A DNA stretch of 64,000 nucleotides, from the NCBI RefSeq assembly GCF_051903065.1, contig NZ_CP178438.1; one strand, 5' to 3'. The notes under the pieces are model-generated. The model ran no database searches, was not told where the DNA came from, and saw nothing but the letters and a program-made list of their open reading frames with translations. Made by a program: the position numbers and the translations under genes. This document shows positions 11,037 through 44,205 of the stretch, one piece after another; the stretch's first letter is position 1, and each line of letters starts with the position of its first letter. The stretch comes from Escherichia coli. Its GTDB lineage: Bacteria; Pseudomonadota; Gammaproteobacteria; Enterobacterales; Enterobacteriaceae.

Positions 11037-11729
11037 TTAATTGTGTCGCTTAAGGGTTTGTGACTGACTGATTAAGACCTTTCCAAAGACCATAAACCGG
11101 TGTTCGTTTTCGCTGGTAATTCCCCATTCGCGGTAAATCTGATTATCAGAAATTACCAGCAGTTTATCAGGTATCATTTGCAGTCGTTTGACGTAAATTT
11201 TATCATCAAAACCAAATACATATATACCATCCCCATCAAACTGATTGATACTGATATCAACGAAGATGAGATCTCCTGGCTCAATGGTTGGACACATACT
11301 GTCCCCACGAACGTTGATAACTTTAATGTGATTTGCTGGTCGTCCACCAAACATCGATACAGCATTATCAGTTCTGTATTCAATGGCATGAATCACATCA
11401 ATGACATCACCGCCCTGGATAAGGCCATTTCCCGCACTGGCACTGACATCCAGCATTTCAATACGGAATACATCCTTCACCTGCGCAACATCCTCACTAA
11501 TACTGTTTTTACATACAGTATTACTTTTGAGGTCTGAGGTAAAGAGATCAGCAATATCAACACCTAAGCTCCTGGCAATATTACTCAGGGCTTGTTCAGT
11601 GAATTGTTTCTGCTTACCTGTTTCGAGGCGCGAGATATTCGCCGCATCCACTCCTATTGCTTCAGCGAGATCGGCGATTTTCATGTTCTTCGCCTGGCGA
11701 AGTTGTCTGACTCGATTTCCTATGTTCAT
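11037..11729 (-). CDS. CI-like prophage repressor (HTH_XRE + S24 LexA-like peptidase domain)
   Basis: 230 aa; N-terminal IGNRVRQLRQAKNMKIADLAEAIGVDAANISRLETGK (HTH); C-terminal ..VRGDSMCPTIEPGDLIFVD...KRL (Ser/Lys autocleavage-type motifs). Confidence 0.85.
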   Translation of the reverse strand: MNIGNRVRQLRQAKNMKIADLAEAIGVDAANISRLETGKQKQFTEQALSNIARSLGVDIADLFTSDLKSNTVCKNSISEDVAQVKDVFRIEMLDVSASAGNGLIQGGDVIDVIHAIEYRTDNAVSMFGGRPANHIKVINVRGDSMCPTIEPGDLIFVDISINQFDGDGIYVFGFDDKIYVKRLQMIPDKLLVISDNQIYREWGITSENEHRFMVFGKVLISQSQTLKRHN

Positions 11730-13968: not shown

Positions 13969-14459
13969 TCATGAGTCTTTTGAATGAAGTTCAGAAATTC
14001 ATTGAAGCCCATCCGGGGTGTACTTCCGGAGACATTGCGGATGCTTTTGCAGGTTACTCACGGCAGCGCGTTCTGCAGTCAGCAAGCAAGTTACGTCAGA
14101 GTGGGCGTGTGGCTCACCGTTGTGAAGGAGATACACGCAGACATTTCCCACGCCTGACTGAGAGAGCGCAGGAGCCGGAACCACAACCAGTTCGTGAAAC
14201 CAGACCTGTGCGCAATTTCTATGTCGGCACTAACGATCCCCGGGTGATTTTGTGCCTGACCCGCCAGGCGGAAGAACTGGAGTCCAGGGGCCTATACCGT
14301 CGTGCTGCAACGGTGTGGATGGCGGCATTCCGTGAAAGCCACTCCCAGCCAGAACGAAACAATTTTCTGGTGCGTCGTGAGCAGTGTTTACGGAAAAGCA
14401 GCAAGCGCGCTGTATCGGGTGATGAGTGGTATCTGTCAGGGAATTACGTGGGGGCTTAA
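13965..14459 (+). CDS. hypothetical protein (possible DNA-binding/replication accessory)
   Basis: 164 aa; ATGA overlap with the O-like gene; no family recognised. Confidence 0.4.
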   Translation: MIMSLLNEVQKFIEAHPGCTSGDIADAFAGYSRQRVLQSASKLRQSGRVAHRCEGDTRRHFPRLTERAQEPEPQPVRETRPVRNFYVGTNDPRVILCLTRQAEELESRGLYRRAATVWMAAFRESHSQPERNNFLVRREQCLRKSSKRAVSGDEWYLSGNYVGA

Positions 14460-15112
14460 TGAGTAATAAATATTGCCAGGAGCTGGTGGAACTGCGGAAC
14501 AAACCAGCCCATGAACTGAAGGAAGTGGGTGATCAGTGGCGCACGCCGGACAACATTTTCTGGGGAATTAACACCCTGTTTGGCCCGTTTGTTCTGGATC
14601 TGTTCACTGACGGTGATAACGCCAAATGTGCCGCGTATTACACGGCGGAAGACAACGCGCTGGCGCATGACTGGTCAGAACGCCTTGCGGAGCTTAAAGG
14701 TGCTGCCTTTGGTAATCCTCCATACAGCCGCGCCAGTCAGCATGAGGGGCAATACATCACCGGCATGCGTTACATCATGAAACATGCCAGTGCCATGCGT
14801 GATAAGGGCGGGCGCTATGTTTTCCTGATCAAAGCTGCCACCAGCGAAGTGTGGTGGCCGGAAGATGCAGATCATATTGCTTTTATTCGCGGGCGTATTG
14901 GTTTTGAACTGCCTGTCTGGTTTATCCCGAAAGACGAGAAGCAGGTACCGACAGGAGCTTTTTTCGCTGGTGCTATTGCTGTTTTTGACAAGACCTGGAA
15001 GGGACCGGCAATCAGCTACATCGGGCGCGATGAACTTGAGGCATGTGGTGAGGCGTTTCTGGCGCAGGTTCGCCAGCAGGCGGAAAAACTGGTCAGGGAG
15101 ATGGCGGCATGA
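14459..15112 (+). CDS. phage Dam-type N6-adenine DNA methyltransferase
   Basis: Start at the internal ATG overlapping the upstream stop (TAATG); catalytic ..AFGNPPYSRA.. (NPPY) motif. Confidence 0.7.
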   Translation: MSNKYCQELVELRNKPAHELKEVGDQWRTPDNIFWGINTLFGPFVLDLFTDGDNAKCAAYYTAEDNALAHDWSERLAELKGAAFGNPPYSRASQHEGQYITGMRYIMKHASAMRDKGGRYVFLIKAATSEVWWPEDADHIAFIRGRIGFELPVWFIPKDEKQVPTGAFFAGAIAVFDKTWKGPAISYIGRDELEACGEAFLAQVRQQAEKLVREMAA

Positions 15113-15435
15113 CGACATTAACTCAATGCCAGCAGCAGGTGCTGGATATGCTGATTTCTTATCAGAAAGAGCGTGGCTTTCCGCCAACCAATCAGGAGGT
15201 GGCAACCATGCTGGGATACCGTTCAGTGAATGCAGCGGTGGAGCATCTTCGCGCACTGGAGAAAAAAGGCGTCATCACGATAAAGCGTGGCGTGGCCCGG
15301 GGGATAACGCTTCATACCGCGGTGAAGGACGACGACAGCGAGGCGGTCGGGATTATCCGCGCACTGCTTGCCGGTGAGGAAAACGCAAGGCTGCGTGCAA
15401 CCCACTGGTTACATGAGAGGGACCTGAAAGTATGA
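15109..15435 (+). CDS. LexA N-terminal DNA-binding-domain-like protein lacking the peptidase domain
   Basis: 108 aa; MTTLTQCQQQVLDMLISYQKERGFPPTNQEVATMLGYRSVNAAVEHLRALEKKGVITIKRGVARGITL aligns by eye with host LexA residues 1-69 in this same window. Confidence 0.7.
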   Translation: MTTLTQCQQQVLDMLISYQKERGFPPTNQEVATMLGYRSVNAAVEHLRALEKKGVITIKRGVARGITLHTAVKDDDSEAVGIIRALLAGEENARLRATHWLHERDLKV

Positions 15436-15821
15436 AGCTGATCCTGCCTTTTCCGCCCAGCGTGAACACGTACTGGCGACACCCCAACAAAGGGGCATTT
15501 TCTGGTAAGAGCCTGATAAGCGCGGCGGGGCGAAAATTTCAGAGCGCGGCGTGCGCAGCAATAGTTGAGCAGTTACGTCGTCTGCCAAAACCAACGTCGG
15601 CACCTGCTTCAGTGGAGATCGTGTTGTTTCCTCCGGATAACCGGATCCGCGATCTGGACAACTATAACAAGGCGCTGTTTGACGCCCTGACCCACGCGGG
15701 TGTGTGGGAAGACGACAGACAGGTGAAAAGAATGCTGGTGGAGTGGGGACCGGTTATCCCGGAAGGGAAGGTCGAGATCACTATCAGTAAGTACGAGAAA
15801 ACGGCGGGTGCAGCCGCCTGA
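15432..15821 (+). CDS. rusA: RusA Holliday-junction resolvase
   Basis: 129 aa; ..LPFPPSVNTYWRH..RDLDNYNKALFDALTHAGVWEDDRQV.. matches the recalled RusA family pattern. Confidence 0.8.
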   Translation: MKLILPFPPSVNTYWRHPNKGAFSGKSLISAAGRKFQSAACAAIVEQLRRLPKPTSAPASVEIVLFPPDNRIRDLDNYNKALFDALTHAGVWEDDRQVKRMLVEWGPVIPEGKVEITISKYEKTAGAAA

Positions 15822-16651: not shown

Positions 16652-17647
16652 GTGACCGTGAGAGCACTACTGACTCCTGAAATTGCCCCGCGTATGGGGA
16701 TCGTATTGTTCAGGCCAGGTTCAGAGCTGATGCCCCTGTTTATGCAGGGGCGTGTCCTGTTGGAGCCTGAGCCGGAACGTTATTCATCTTTTGCCAGTGG
16801 TGCCGTTCCGGCGGTATCACAACCGCTGGCGGATGATCCTGCCGTTCGGGGCGTGTTCCGCAATGAGGCAGTGATCCGTCGTGCTGGTGGCGTGGAATGT
16901 CTTGAAAGCTGGTTACTTCGTGAAAAGGGCTGTCAGTGGCCTCATTCCGACTGGCACAGCGAGAACATGACCACAATGCGGCACGCGCCGGGCGCAATCC
17001 GTCTGTGCTGGCACTGCGATAACCAGCTGCGCGATCAGTTCACGGAACGGCTGGAATCAATGGCAACGGATAACTGTGCCCGCTGGGTATTGTCTGTTGT
17101 GCGTCGGGATCTCGGTTTTGATGATAGTCACGTTGTGACAATGCCGGAACTGTGCTGGTGGCTGGTTCGTAATGACCTGGCGGATGCCTTACCGGAAAGT
17201 GCAGCCCGTAAGGCACTGAGATTACCGAAGCCTGTTGTGCCGTCTGTCACCCGGGAAAGTGACCTTGTGCCTTCGGTTCCTGCCACCAGCATCATCCAGG
17301 ATAAGGCGAAAAAGGTGCTGGCGCTGAAAGTGGATCCGGAGTCGCCGGAGTCTTTTATGTTACGCCCAAAACGTCGCCGCTGGGTTAATGAAAAGTACAC
17401 GCGCTGGGTTAAGACACAGCCGTGTGCATGTTGTGGAAAGCCCGCTGATGATCCCCACCACCTGATAGGCCACGGTCAGGGGGGAATGGGTACAAAAGCG
17501 CATGACCTCTTTGTGTTGCCTTTGTGCAGAAAGCATCACGACGAGCTGCATGCGGATACCGTGGCATTTGAAGAGAAGTATGGCTCCCAGTTGGAGCTGA
17601 TATTTCGTTTTATCGATCGTGCGCTGGCAATAGGCGTACTGGCGTAA
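16652..17647 (+). CDS. DUF968-type nin-region protein with C-terminal Cys/His nuclease-like motif
   Basis: C-terminus ..CACCGKPADDPHHLIGHGQGGMGTKAHDLFVLPLCRKHHDELH..; start may be the GTG at 16658. Confidence 0.55.
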   Translation: MTVRALLTPEIAPRMGIVLFRPGSELMPLFMQGRVLLEPEPERYSSFASGAVPAVSQPLADDPAVRGVFRNEAVIRRAGGVECLESWLLREKGCQWPHSDWHSENMTTMRHAPGAIRLCWHCDNQLRDQFTERLESMATDNCARWVLSVVRRDLGFDDSHVVTMPELCWWLVRNDLADALPESAARKALRLPKPVVPSVTRESDLVPSVPATSIIQDKAKKVLALKVDPESPESFMLRPKRRRWVNEKYTRWVKTQPCACCGKPADDPHHLIGHGQGGMGTKAHDLFVLPLCRKHHDELHADTVAFEEKYGSQLELIFRFIDRALAIGVLA

Positions 17648-17660
17648 GTGGAGAACGAGC

Positions 17661-18413
17661 ATGAACCTTGAAGCCTTACCAAAATATTACTCCCCAAAAT
17701 CTCCCAAATTGAGCGATGAGGCACCGGCGACAGGCTCGAGTGGTTTAACGATTACGGATGTGATGGCTGCGCAGGGGATGGTGCAGTCGAAAGCACCGCT
17801 TGGGTTTGCCTTATTTCTGGCAAAAGTTGGTGTTCAGGATCCTCAGTTTGCGATTGAAGGTCTGCTCAATTACGCGATGGCACTGGATAACCCGACATTG
17901 AACAAATTGAGTGAAGAAACCCGGTTACAGATCATCCCTTACCTTGTGAATTTTGCCTTTGCTGATTATTCCAGGTCTGCTGCAAGTAAGGCTCGCTGTG
18001 AGCATTGTGCTGGTACTGGATTTCATAATGTATTGCGCGAAGTGGTGAAACACTCCAGAAGCGGGGAATCTGTTATCAAGGAAGAGTGGGTGAAGGAACT
18101 ATGTCAGCATTGTTATGGTAAGGGAGAGGTCAGCACAGCGTGTAGAGGGTGTAAGGGGAAAGGTATTGTACTGGATGAAAAAAGAACCCGGCTTCATGGT
18201 GCGCCTGTTTATAAGGTTTGTGGGCGTTGCAATGGAAACCGGTTTAGCCGTTTACCAACCACACTGGCGCGGCATCATGTCCAGAAGCTGGTACCGGATC
18301 TGACGGATTATCAGTGGTACAAAGGATATGCAGATGTCATTGATAAACTGGTTACAAAGTGCTGGCAGGAAGAAGCATATGCAGAGACACAATTGAGAAA
18401 AGTGACAAGATAA
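17661..18413 (+). CDS. late-gene antiterminator Q-like protein
   Basis: 250 aa with multiple CxxC pairs; placed immediately upstream of a promoter-terminator pair and the lysis cassette. Confidence 0.55.
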   Translation: MNLEALPKYYSPKSPKLSDEAPATGSSGLTITDVMAAQGMVQSKAPLGFALFLAKVGVQDPQFAIEGLLNYAMALDNPTLNKLSEETRLQIIPYLVNFAFADYSRSAASKARCEHCAGTGFHNVLREVVKHSRSGESVIKEEWVKELCQHCYGKGEVSTACRGCKGKGIVLDEKRTRLHGAPVYKVCGRCNGNRFSRLPTTLARHHVQKLVPDLTDYQWYKGYADVIDKLVTKCWQEEAYAETQLRKVTR

Positions 18414-19019: not shown

Positions 19020-20072
19020 ATGAAAAATACTGTAAAAATAAACAGTGTTGATTTAATCAACGCTGATTGCCTGCATTTTATTCAGTCCCTGCCTGATGAT
19101 TCCATTGACCTGATTGTTACCGATCCGCCTTACTTCAAGGTGAAACCTAACGGTTGGGACAATCAGTGGAAAGGGGACGAAGATTACCTTAAGTGGCTGG
19201 ACCACTGTCTGGCCCAGTTCTGGCGGGTGTTGAAACCTGCCGGAAGCCTTTACCTGTTCTGTGGGCATCGCCTGGCATCTGATATTGAGATCATGATGCG
19301 TGAACGTTTCAACGTGCTTAACCATATCATCTGGGCGAAGCCGTCCGGACGTTGGAATGGGTGTAATAAAGAAAGTCTGCGCGCATATTTTCCTGCCACA
19401 GAGCGCGTTCTGTTTGCTGAACATTACCAGGGGCCATATCGCGGCAAAAGTGACGGCTATGCGGCAAAAGAAAGGGAACTCAAACAGCACATAATGGCAC
19501 CGCTGATATCGTATTTCAGGGATGCTCGTGCCGAACTGGGTATAACGGCAAAACAAATTGCCGAAGCCACAGGTAAGAAAAATATGGTTTCCCACTGGTT
19601 TGGTGCCAGTCAGTGGCAGTTGCCGAATGAGGCTGACTATCGGAAGTTACAGGCACTGTTTTCCCGTATAGCGGCAGAGAAGTTTCAGGAACAACAACTG
19701 GAACAACCACACCACCAGCTGGTGGCATCTTATGATTCACTGAATCGCAAATATTCTGAATTGCTGGATGAGTTTAAATCTCTCCGGCGCTATTTCTCCG
19801 TATCAGTCTCCGTGCCTTATACCGATGTCTGGACGCATAAGCCCGTTCAGTTCTACCCGGGTAAACATCCGTGCGAGAAACCGACGGATATGCTCCGGCA
19901 AATAATCAATGCCAGTAGTCGACCTGGTGATCTGGTTGCTGATTTCTTTATGGGATCCGGTTCCACAATAAAAGCAGCAATGGCGCTGGGGCGTCGGGCG
20001 TTAGGTGTTGAACTTGAGTCAGAGCGGTTTAATCAGACGGTGAAAGAGGTAAGTGAACTGGTGGGGAAATAA
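19020..20072 (+). CDS. DNA methyltransferase (beta-class N6-adenine or N4-cytosine; DPPY motif)
   Basis: 350 aa; ..DLIVTDPPYF.. (motif IV) near the N-terminus and ..FFMGSGST.. (motif I) near the C-terminus. Confidence 0.75.
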   Translation: MKNTVKINSVDLINADCLHFIQSLPDDSIDLIVTDPPYFKVKPNGWDNQWKGDEDYLKWLDHCLAQFWRVLKPAGSLYLFCGHRLASDIEIMMRERFNVLNHIIWAKPSGRWNGCNKESLRAYFPATERVLFAEHYQGPYRGKSDGYAAKERELKQHIMAPLISYFRDARAELGITAKQIAEATGKKNMVSHWFGASQWQLPNEADYRKLQALFSRIAAEKFQEQQLEQPHHQLVASYDSLNRKYSELLDEFKSLRRYFSVSVSVPYTDVWTHKPVQFYPGKHPCEKPTDMLRQIINASSRPGDLVADFFMGSGSTIKAAMALGRRALGVELESERFNQTVKEVSELVGK

Positions 20073-41671: not shown

Positions 41672-41920
41672 TTAGTGAACAAACCACTCGTCAGCAGATT
41701 CCCAGGTATCTTTCAGAGTCTCCTGAACAAAAGTTTTTGCAGAATCCTTATCTGCGGTGCGTGTAACAGAAAGGCCATCGTTGCTGGTGGCTTTTACGAT
41801 CACCTCTACATCGTCATAACGTTTACTGATGCGTCGGGTTAATTCTTCCTTTAACGCATCCACAGCACCGGTTGGCATTTTAGTCATTTTTTCTTTGGCT
41901 ATGCAGATTTCAATACGCAT
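41672..41920 (-). CDS. DinI-family protein
   Basis: 82 aa; [11 protein letters not shown]...[10 protein letters not shown] matches the recalled DinI pattern (MRIEVTIAK...ETWESADDWFV). Confidence 0.85.
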
Positions 41921-41933
41921 AAAAGTCCCTCTA

Positions 41934-41979
41934 TACTGTGTTTGTATACAGTATTATTTTTAACTGTATAGATAAACAG
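41934..41979. promoter_or_regulatory. two LexA (SOS) boxes upstream of the dinI-like gene
   Basis: TACTGTGTTTGTATACAGTA (41934-41953, perfect CTGT-N8-ACAG palindrome) and CTGTATAGATAAACAG (41964-41979). Confidence 0.8.
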
Positions 41980-41981
41980 TG

Positions 41982-43079
41982 TCAAGAGGCCTTATTTCTG
42001 CTCCTTTGGAGCTCTTCAAAACGATTATGTAAAGATTTCGGATACAGTTCGGTATATACCTGCCATAGCACGTTTAATGAACGATGCCCTGTAACCTGGG
42101 CGACTTCCTCAATACTAAAACCAGCCTCAAATAAGCGACTTGCCCCTTCTCTACGCAAATCATGGTATCGCAGATCTTTAATACCTAATTTGCTTCTTAC
42201 CCTCTGGAATCCCGCAGTAACAGAAGTGCTGTTATATGGAAAAATGAATTCTGATTTTTTGGGTTGTCGTTGGACGATATCCCAGGCTTCCCCAAGCAAG
42301 GCTACTTTCATATGGTTGCCTTCCTTTTTACGTGGATCTTTCCTGTCTCTTACGAGTATGGATTTTTGTTCCTGATCGAGATCCTCCCATCGTAATCGGC
42401 ATACTTCACCGATTCGCATACATGACCACACAGAAAATTTGAGGATATCAACGAACGGAATTTTTGAGCATTTATGTGTAGATCGTTGTTGAAGACCTTC
42501 AATGAGCATGTCCAGTTCATCAGATGCCGGTCTACGATTACGACGATTTGATTTACCAATTAAACCAAGTTTAAGTAGATATGGACGAGCGGCTTTTGCT
42601 GGGTTTGATGTGTAATTAATTCCATATACAGGTTTGGCAGCATCCAGAACACTGCCAAGATAACTAACATCGTGGCTAACTGTAGCTGGACCTGCACCAG
42701 CGTTGTTTCTTAGCCTGCAATGTTCAATTACGTCATTTTCTGTCAGTTCAGATAGTTTGAGCGCGGAGACGTCACTATCCATAAGCAGTTCCAGCACATA
42801 TCTTTTAGTACGGCCTGCTTTACCTCCGGCATTTGGGTCATTTAAATATTTGTGTAGTAAGTCACGGACTGTAAGTCCGTCAACTGCATTTGATGATGGA
42901 ATGCCATATAGATCTAATTCCATCACTTTCTGTGTGCCCCATGTTTTGGCATGAGCATGTTTAGGGAATGTTTTACTTTCCCTGTAAGTGATAACACCTT
43001 TTTCTTTGATAATCACATTACAGCGATAGCGTGGTGTGCCATCGGATTTTAGTCGTTTCTCTATGTTATAGTATGCCAT
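41982..43079 (-). CDS. tyrosine integrase (dusA-targeting type)
   Basis: 365 aa; C-terminal ..HDLRREGASRLFEAGFSIEEVAQVTGHRSLNVLWQVYTELY with R..H..R..Y-type catalytic residues; abuts the dusA 5' end. Confidence 0.9.
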   Translation of the reverse strand: MAYYNIEKRLKSDGTPRYRCNVIIKEKGVITYRESKTFPKHAHAKTWGTQKVMELDLYGIPSSNAVDGLTVRDLLHKYLNDPNAGGKAGRTKRYVLELLMDSDVSALKLSELTENDVIEHCRLRNNAGAGPATVSHDVSYLGSVLDAAKPVYGINYTSNPAKAARPYLLKLGLIGKSNRRNRRPASDELDMLIEGLQQRSTHKCSKIPFVDILKFSVWSCMRIGEVCRLRWEDLDQEQKSILVRDRKDPRKKEGNHMKVALLGEAWDIVQRQPKKSEFIFPYNSTSVTAGFQRVRSKLGIKDLRYHDLRREGASRLFEAGFSIEEVAQVTGHRSLNVLWQVYTELYPKSLHNRFEELQRSRNKAS

Positions 43080-43160: not shown

Positions 43161-43271
43161 TTCAAAAATGCACGATAATCATGAAACACAAAAAATTAAT
43201 CAAACCAGCGTGATGCCTGAAAAAACTGGTGTTTACTGGAATTCTCGGTTTAGCATTGCTCCTATGCTCGA
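43161..43271. repeat. attR-side dusA 5' sequence (imperfect direct repeat of 4751-4861)
   Basis: Alignment by eye; this copy is fused in frame to the dusA body. Confidence 0.7.
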
Positions 43272-44205
43272 CTGGACGGACAGACATTGCCGCTATTTCT
43301 TGCGTCTGCTTTCCCGCAATACGTTGCTGTATACCGAAATGGTGACTACAGGGGCGATTATTCACGGTAAAGGTGATTATCTGGCGTACAGTGAAGAAGA
43401 ACATCCGGTAGCGTTGCAACTGGGCGGTAGCGATCCGGCGGCGCTGGCGCAGTGTGCGAAGCTGGCAGAAGCGCGCGGATATGATGAGATCAACCTGAAT
43501 GTCGGCTGCCCGTCTGACCGGGTGCAGAACGGCATGTTTGGTGCGTGTCTGATGGGTAATGCGCAGCTGGTTGCCGACTGCGTGAAAGCGATGCGCGATG
43601 TGGTGTCGATTCCGGTGACGGTGAAAACGCGTATTGGCATCGATGATCAGGACAGCTATGAATTTCTCTGCGATTTCATCAACACCGTTTCCGGCAAAGG
43701 CGAGTGTGAGATGTTCATCATCCATGCACGTAAAGCCTGGCTTTCGGGGTTAAGCCCGAAAGAAAACCGTGAAATCCCGCCGCTCGATTATCCGCGTGTG
43801 TATCAACTGAAGCGTGACTTTCCGCATCTGACAATGTCCATTAACGGTGGCATCAAGTCGCTGGAAGAAGCTAAAGCGCATTTGCAACATATGGATGGCG
43901 TGATGGTCGGGCGCGAGGCGTATCAGAATCCGGGTATTCTGGCGGCGGTAGACCGGGAGATCTTTGGTTCCTCGGATACCGATGCCGATCCGGTTGCGGT
44001 AGTGCGCGCCATGTATCCGTACATTGAGCGTGAACTCAGCCAGGGGACGTATCTCGGCCATATTACCCGGCATATGCTGGGCTTGTTCCAGGGTATTCCT
44101 GGCGCGCGGCAGTGGCGGCGTTATTTAAGTGAAAATGCCCATAAAGCGGGTGCAGACATTAATGTGCTGGAACACGCGCTCAAACTGGTGGCGGATAAGC
44201 GTTAA
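43168..44205 (+). CDS. dusA: tRNA-dihydrouridine synthase A
   Basis: 345 aa; TIM-barrel Dus motifs (..[18 protein letters not shown].., ..NLNVGCPS..); conserved position next to pspG. Confidence 0.9.

Follow-up and report, generated by a model that had tools for sequence, protein, structure and literature searches.

What can a prophage do with the DNA-binding half of LexA once the half that allows LexA to be inactivated is gone? The question is raised by a 64,000-nucleotide stretch of Escherichia coli DNA (assembly GCF_051903065.1, contig NZ_CP178438.1; hereafter, the window), in which an open reading frame (ORF) at 15109-15435, starting with ATG and lying inside a prophage, encodes a LexA-like protein of 108 amino acids. 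A first-pass annotation had described this product as a LexA paralog that consists only of the DNA-binding domain and escapes RecA-stimulated autocleavage, so that it might occupy SOS boxes in a non-inducible manner or act on phage operators. The reading that is tentatively favored here is that of a RecA-insensitive, delayed-early regulator, which would dimerize through its C-terminal tail and/or on DNA, bind to SOS-box-like sites and re-impose control on LexA-regulated promoters after host LexA has been cleaved.

The homology to the LexA DNA-binding domain is well founded. The whole Pfam model LexA_DNA_bind (PF01726) is covered by residues 1-65 of the protein (E=3.8e-19), and BLASTP aligns it with the LexA of the host at 43% identity over 90 amino acids (E=1e-21). 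Its AlphaFold2 (AF2) model, with a predicted local distance difference test score (pLDDT) of 84, superimposes on the LexA N-terminal domain of 3JSO with a root-mean-square deviation of 1.0 Å over 68 residues in Foldseek, and the top sequence matches in the PDB are the LexA entries 1LEA, 1JHH, and 3JSO. As had been stated, the host lexA gene lies in the same window; its distance from the phage gene is about 14.3 kb. It was also correct that the S24 peptidase/dimerization domain is missing: searches against Pfam, NCBIfam, and PDB sequences gave none, and thus RecA-stimulated self-cleavage in cis is impossible. Matches to NCBIfam and the PDB end at residues 90-91 of a chain that ends at 108, and the score against TIGR00498, the LexA repressor equivalog, is 70.6 bits, below the curated cutoff of 110.95. 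The alignment with LexA nevertheless extends across the linker/hinge and the cleavage-site region, where A88-G89-E90 of the LexA-like protein are aligned with A84-G85-E86 of LexA. The pair A88-G89 was considered as a conserved live site for cleavage in trans by host LexA or CI, and was rejected because relatives carry AN, VG, RK, and other pairs there.

By contrast, the first-pass annotation was mistaken in two respects. First, the DNA-binding domain is followed by a conserved C-terminal helical tail of 40 amino acids. Residues 69-108 are modeled by AF2 as a linker and a two-helix hairpin (H75-88 and H93-103) with block-mean pLDDT values of ~86-88, and the pattern EAxxLLRxLLAxxxxARxRAxxxLxxxG is retained down to 38-50% identity in relatives from Cronobacter, Klebsiella, and Enterobacter/Cedecea prophages. 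Second, the gene is no recent paralog of the host lexA; with its 43% identity to LexA, it belongs to an old phage family that spans several genera, PHROG 362. The protein aligns from residue 1 to 108 with positions 1-106 of the 106 in the phrog_362 profile ("transcriptional repressor"; E=3.8e-59).

As modeled, the tail is a natural candidate to substitute for the dimerization surface that was lost with the S24 domain. In bacterial two-hybrid systems, LexA(1-87) fused to foreign dimerization domains represses SOS operators and is insensitive to RecA. These fusions are artificial, whereas the dimerizing role of the natural LexA-like tail is predicted. In addition, when LexA is on DNA, its N-terminal domains contact each other through an extensive interface (Butala 2011, PMC3159453). 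Cooperative binding could therefore persist after loss of the C-terminal half, and an N-terminal domain with any extra dimerizing element could plausibly bind CTGT-N8-ACAG.

The gene is, in effect, an old acquaintance, and the novelty implied in the first-pass annotation has to be given up. Its product is identical to WP_000210155.1, called "LexA family transcriptional regulator" by the Prokaryotic Genome Annotation Pipeline (PGAP), and the same gene is orf42 of SfV. Of 5426 complete E. coli genomes, 2221 (~40%) carry it, mostly intact and with as many as four copies in one genome, and ~50 phage records have it at 95-100% identity (SfV, SfII, SfIV, mEp460, cdtI, 15 Stx2c, Stx2a_1447, WGPS2, and others). 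The length of the family is steady at ~105-111 amino acids, and the tail is conserved across genera. Phage records name the gene "LexA DNA binding domain protein" or "LexA-like protein", and several of them mislabel this protease-less protein as "SOS-response repressor and protease LexA" or "RecA-mediated autopeptidases" (for instance, AB285204 of the cdtI phage, KF030445, and LR595868). Since dozens of phage records and thousands of genomes already carry its annotation, and one truncated LexA homolog of a phage, GIL01 gp6, has been characterized (PMC6182141), the object is known by sequence, annotation, and family, its kind has a characterized member, and it is an annotated family rather than a discovery. 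A functional study of the PHROG 362/SfV orf42 family was not found in the literature searched. Among the representative proteins, many have two LexA_DNA_bind stretches in tandem, for example P0130 (222 amino acids), P0148 (352 amino acids), P0150, P0153, and P0187; P0218, another representative, gave no viral matches as a query.

Selection on the gene was followed in 52 distinct nucleotide alleles from E. coli-type loci through the ratio of nonsynonymous to synonymous substitution rates (dN/dS). The ratio is 0.08 for the whole gene, 0.006 for the DNA-binding domain (codons 1-68), and 0.19 for the tail (codons 69-108), compared with 0.10 for the neighboring RusA and 0.04 for Dam. Constraint within the dam-rusA module is highest in the DNA-binding domain; the gene is subject to strong purifying selection and clearly has a function. 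This domain is almost invariant although the phage backgrounds that carry it are mosaic, with different immunity, Q, and late regions, which points to a target common to all of these backgrounds, for instance a site in the host.

The recognition helix gives an indication of what this target might be. Residues 39-52 read SVNAAVEHLRALEK and differ from those of LexA by P40V, E44V, and K48R, followed by A51E and R52K, while S39, N41, A42, E45, and H46 are kept. These five residues, together with position 44, are the ones that we take to contact bases, going by the structure and genetics of LexA on its operator. Since S39, N41, A42, and E45 are retained, the protein probably recognizes CTGT-type half-sites, that is, SOS-box-like operators; with a helix so close to that of LexA, the occupation of SOS boxes is plausible. 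Within the dam-rusA module, no SOS-type site (CTGT-N8-ACAG with one mismatch at most) was found, and the sole inverted repeat there is a GC-rich one of 7 bp that contains no SOS-like motif. Likewise, the short inverted repeats near the LexA-like gene have no SOS motif, and the gene is not accompanied by a conserved palindrome within the module. An invariant DNA-binding domain encoded in a mobile module that holds no SOS-type site favors a target that is shared by all hosts or phages, such as SOS boxes.

The time at which the protein would act can be judged from the position of its gene. The first-pass annotation had placed it in a nin-like region beside RusA and a Dam-like methyltransferase, and both the ORF map and the annotation agree, with the LexA-like gene between the two. 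Because the gene overlaps both neighbors and a sigma-70-like promoter was not found in front of it, delayed-early expression from the rightward (PR-type) operon is most likely. The protein would then be made in lytic growth or on induction, at a time that would coincide with the destruction of host LexA by RecA*. Unable to cleave itself, it would bind DNA as a dimer, held together by the tail or by contacts between N-terminal domains, and promoters with SOS boxes would be re-repressed, or their repression reshaped, once host LexA is gone. In origin, it would be a phage-borne derivative of LexA in which the family-specific hairpin has replaced the S24 protease/dimerization domain behind the winged helix. 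Candidate targets would include the SOS genes of the host and the boxes of the prophage itself at dinI, in cI, and at a methyltransferase gene. The data establish the homology, the fold, the lack of S24, the conservation, the selection, and the synteny, from which expression timing, dimerization, DNA target, and physiological effect are inferred.

The prophage has four consensus-grade SOS boxes, two at the dinI-like gene, one in cI, and one at the N6/N4 methyltransferase gene (Table 1); the dinI-like gene with SOS boxes that the first-pass annotation had mentioned does exist. Elsewhere, consensus-grade boxes with differing 8-bp spacers stand at a similar upstream distance, as at 838-853 of locus L002, inside a CI-like gene, and loci L122 and L132 have consensus-grade boxes at about -3.4 and -3.8 kb. 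This recurrence of boxes with different spacers suggests selection for LexA binding within cI, where the internal box might perhaps serve an SOS-controlled internal or antisense promoter. The box at the methyltransferase start could be a LexA site or merely conserved coding sequence; it is found at the homologous position in L010, L092-L094, and L119.

A link between the family and SOS control is also seen in the relatives, for which 168 loci were retrieved, 166 of them with a LexA-like gene. In the Klebsiella/Enterobacter/Cedecea clade, the region upstream of the LexA-like gene holds a terminator and, after it, a sigma-70-like promoter that overlaps with a consensus SOS box (for instance, TACTGTTTATTTATACAGTAT). 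Since the Klebsiella-type gene lies downstream of a promoter with a host-type SOS box, the family is tied to SOS physiology or control. In L102 (6200-7530), the SOS box is followed by dinI, a phrog_1813 ORF (101 amino acids), the LexA-like gene, a phrog_1212 ORF (67 amino acids), DUF968, and Q. L003 and L004 (5562-6408) and L010 (5563-6357) were covered as well, and in L003 and L010 the interval between the box and the LexA-like gene holds only a small phrog_1813-like ORF (75-82 amino acids). A bolder form of the proposal would make the protein a RecA-proof surrogate of LexA that is produced after the cleavage of host LexA and re-silences SOS-box promoters during lytic growth, including those of host SOS genes and of the LexA-controlled dinI/antirepressor operons of co-resident prophages; the Klebsiella-type gene, located inside such an operon, would close a negative-feedback loop. 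In this full extent, the idea is rather unlikely.

Several points have to be set against the binding of SOS boxes by a dimer of this protein. A tandem-linked chain of two copies with a (GGGGS)6 linker, modeled by AF2 from a paired alignment of 17 sequences, had disordered linkers and a predicted template modeling score (pTM) of 0.34; no confident dimer was obtained, and the model speaks neither for nor against dimerization. Among E. coli loci, the cI-internal box occurs in ~29 of 71 and the methyltransferase box in ~24 of 66, so both are frequent and neither is universal; a universal SOS box linked to the LexA-like gene was not found across these loci. The recognition helix itself varies, as position 44 is never Glu across the phage family and position 45 is E, D, L, or I depending on the subfamily, and the region of positions 42-46 is altered to NAATDML in Cronobacter, NAVALHL in Klebsiella, and NTVFIHL or KAVLLHL in others. 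Variation at positions 44 and 45 implies that specificity has drifted in some clades at least, including the Klebsiella-type members that have SOS boxes upstream. Moreover, the only characterized truncated phage LexA homolog, GIL01 gp6, binds to a site that is not a LexA site and activates transcription. Finally, binding or expression data on any family member were not found in the searchable literature.

These points lead to the first alternative, according to which the protein has kept the LexA fold and acts, like gp6, as a phage-specific regulator that binds an operator of the phage instead of host SOS boxes and times a phage promoter by activation or repression. Besides the precedent of gp6 (PMC6182141), it draws on the differences among subfamilies at positions 42-46, which resemble the divergence seen for immunity. 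It also accommodates the Klebsiella-type members with E45L, which still lie behind a host-type SOS box; this box is best explained as a site for host LexA. Nevertheless, members of the E. coli clade share an invariant DNA-binding domain despite differing immunity, Q, and late regions, and the dam-rusA module contains no conserved palindrome that accompanies the gene. In addition, late genes are governed by the Q antiterminator, so that a late activator of the gp6 type is not obviously needed. Overall, we regard this alternative as somewhat less likely than the SOS-box reading.

In a second alternative, the protein is not a transcription factor at all but a DNA-binding accessory of the RusA resolvase and the HNH-type DUF968 protein, which it might, for example, target or modulate on phage DNA. 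Every retrieved locus with the gene has it in the nin-like region, in the order LexA-like gene, RusA (with stop and start usually overlapping), an optional KilA-N/Ant gene, DUF968, and Q. Adjacency to RusA is retained in relatives at 38-49% identity, DUF968-like ORFs are present in nearly all of the 166 gene-carrying loci, at most ~2 kb downstream in the loci displayed, and the order from the LexA-like gene to RusA and/or DUF968 is kept at 38-60% identity in phages of Escherichia, Cronobacter, Klebsiella, and Enterobacter/Cedecea, usually with overlapping codons. Furthermore, both neighbors are linked to recombination, and DUF968 members have been described as an Orf-like N-terminal domain fused to an HNH motif (PMC4118853). 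However, nin regions are gene-dense, and adjacency there may reflect shared timing alone. The neighbors are also exchanged in some phages: PerC lies upstream in SfIV, RusA is not directly downstream in some loci, and the 67-amino-acid ORF is found instead in the Klebsiella type. The fold, moreover, is that of a classical sequence-specific repressor with an intact recognition helix. A role as an accessory of RusA and DUF968 appears improbable.

The weakest alternative, a functionless and decaying remnant of a captured lexA, fits the alignment with LexA through the linker and cleavage-site region, which agrees with an origin by truncation, but it is effectively refuted by the constant length, the conservation of the tail across genera, the low dN/dS of the gene, and its mostly intact state in so many E. 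coli genomes.

Table 1. Positions in the window of the LexA-like gene, its parts, its neighbors, and the candidate targets of its product.
Feature	Position	Strand	Remarks
LexA-like gene, 108 amino acids	15109..15435	+	ORF; PF01726; phrog_362; PGAP; dN/dS 0.08
LexA-type winged helix-turn-helix, residues 1-68	15109..15312	+	Pfam, BLASTP, AlphaFold2; dN/dS 0.006
Predicted helical hairpin, residues 75-103, family-specific tail	15331..15417	+	AF2, conservation; dN/dS 0.19 (codons 69-108)
Host lexA, 202 amino acids	166..774	+	own SOS boxes at 121-136 and 142-157
Dam-like N6-adenine methyltransferase (phage)	14426..15112	+	stop overlaps LexA-like start, ATGA 15109-15112
RusA Holliday-junction resolvase	15432..15821	+	start overlaps LexA-like stop, ATGA 15432-15435
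DUF968 (HNH-type) protein, phrog_96	16652..17647	+	most constant downstream neighbor of the family
Q-type antiterminator	17661..18413	+	end of nin-like delayed-early region
CI-like repressor gene (S24)	11037-11729	-	
SOS box TACTGTTTTTACATACAGTAT inside CI-like gene, candidate target	11501..11521		coding sequence for CI linker
N6/N4 DNA methyltransferase	19020-20072		downstream of Q
SOS box TACTGTAAAAATAAACAGTGT over codons 4-9 of N6/N4 methyltransferase, candidate target	19028..19048		late-operon leader region
Prophage dinI-like gene, 82 amino acids, candidate target	41672..41920	-	adjoins 3' end of integrase gene, right prophage end
Two tandem SOS boxes upstream of dinI-like gene, TACTGTGTTTGTATACAGTA and AACTGTATAGATAAACAGTG	41934..41981		

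The window starts in the lexA-dinF-zur region of E. coli, with dinF following lexA, and ends with dnaB, alr, uvrA, and neighboring host genes. Between them, a prophage of ~38 kb (~4.8-43.2 kb of the window) is inserted in the 5' end of dusA, with its integrase gene at 41982-43079 on the minus strand. The 5' region of dusA is duplicated at ~82% identity (4760-4870 and 43170-43280); a replacement copy of this kind, carried by the prophage at 82% identity, is typical of dusA-specific integrases. At the left end of the prophage (5117-6105), a gene for a Panacea-domain protein (190 amino acids) is followed by an ORF of 139 amino acids, and the two are a possible toxin-antitoxin pair of the PanA type. 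A gene for a PrtN-family activator lies near this pair, at 6366-6674 on the minus strand.

The function of the LexA-like gene is of more than local interest, as few accessory genes of prophages are commoner in E. coli and Shigella. If its product binds SOS boxes, an uncleavable LexA would act in the absence of host LexA and could affect SOS mutagenesis, prophage cross-induction, and the induction of toxin phages. If it is a full surrogate of LexA, then a phage-encoded modulator of SOS, of cross-induction between prophages, and possibly of Shiga-toxin output would be widespread, given its presence in some two-fifths of E. coli genomes and in Stx2c and Stx2a phages. The matter is most important for Shiga toxin (Stx) phages, the induction of which is SOS-driven. 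If the target is a different one, this would be the second case, GIL01 gp6 being the first, in which a phage has re-used the DNA-binding domain of LexA.

Comparison with known systems begins with host LexA itself (TIGR00498; PDB 1JHH and 3JSO), whose winged helix is homologous to that of the LexA-like protein and whose recognition helix is nearly identical. Unlike LexA, the phage protein has no S24 domain, no Ser119/Lys156, and no self-cleavage; it has a 40-amino-acid helical hairpin instead, and Val in place of E44. Its gene, unlike lexA, is carried by a phage and probably expressed only in lytic growth, and the score of the protein is below the NCBIfam cutoff. A converse arrangement is found in the CI-like protein of the same prophage, which joins an XRE-type HTH_3 domain to an S24 autoprotease and is cleaved on induction. 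Nevertheless, S24 repressors of the CI/LexA type and the LexA-like protein are alike in being DNA-binding regulators of phages that are connected to SOS.

The Klebsiella-type loci invite comparison with the Gifsy prophages, which have a LexA-regulated dinI-antirepressor-irsA operon (Lemire et al. 2011, PMC3121763). In L102, the LexA-like gene is in third position after the SOS box, dinI, and a small ORF, as irsA is in the Gifsy operon; by contrast, the LexA-like gene of the prophage in the window lies outside any dinI operon. The phrog_1813 ORF of L102 holds the position of the antirepressor in Gifsy operons. It was considered as a GftA-type antirepressor and rejected for lack of similarity, and the Gifsy-2 IrsA homolog STM1020 (200 amino acids) was rejected as a LexA-like protein for the same reason.

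The closest characterized analog of the family is gp6 of GIL01, a tectivirus of Bacillus thuringiensis. A tblastn search of 50,697 phage records with the LexA-like protein (E<=1e-5) matched only enterobacterial phages, and the gp6 sequence itself was not directly compared. gp6 is a truncated LexA homolog (Fornelos et al. 2018, PMC6182141) that shares 44% identity with the LexA of B. thuringiensis; it binds to a palindrome of its own, GaCACAnnTGTGaC, at about -43.5 of the late promoter P3 and activates this promoter (PMC6182141). The two systems differ in host phylum and phage type, and late genes in the prophage of the window are under the Q antiterminator. In addition, the C-terminus of gp6 consists of the wing only, whereas the LexA-like family adds a helical hairpin. 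Like the LexA-like protein, however, gp6 is a phage-encoded LexA DNA-binding domain without the protease domain, and it is made early in the lytic program.

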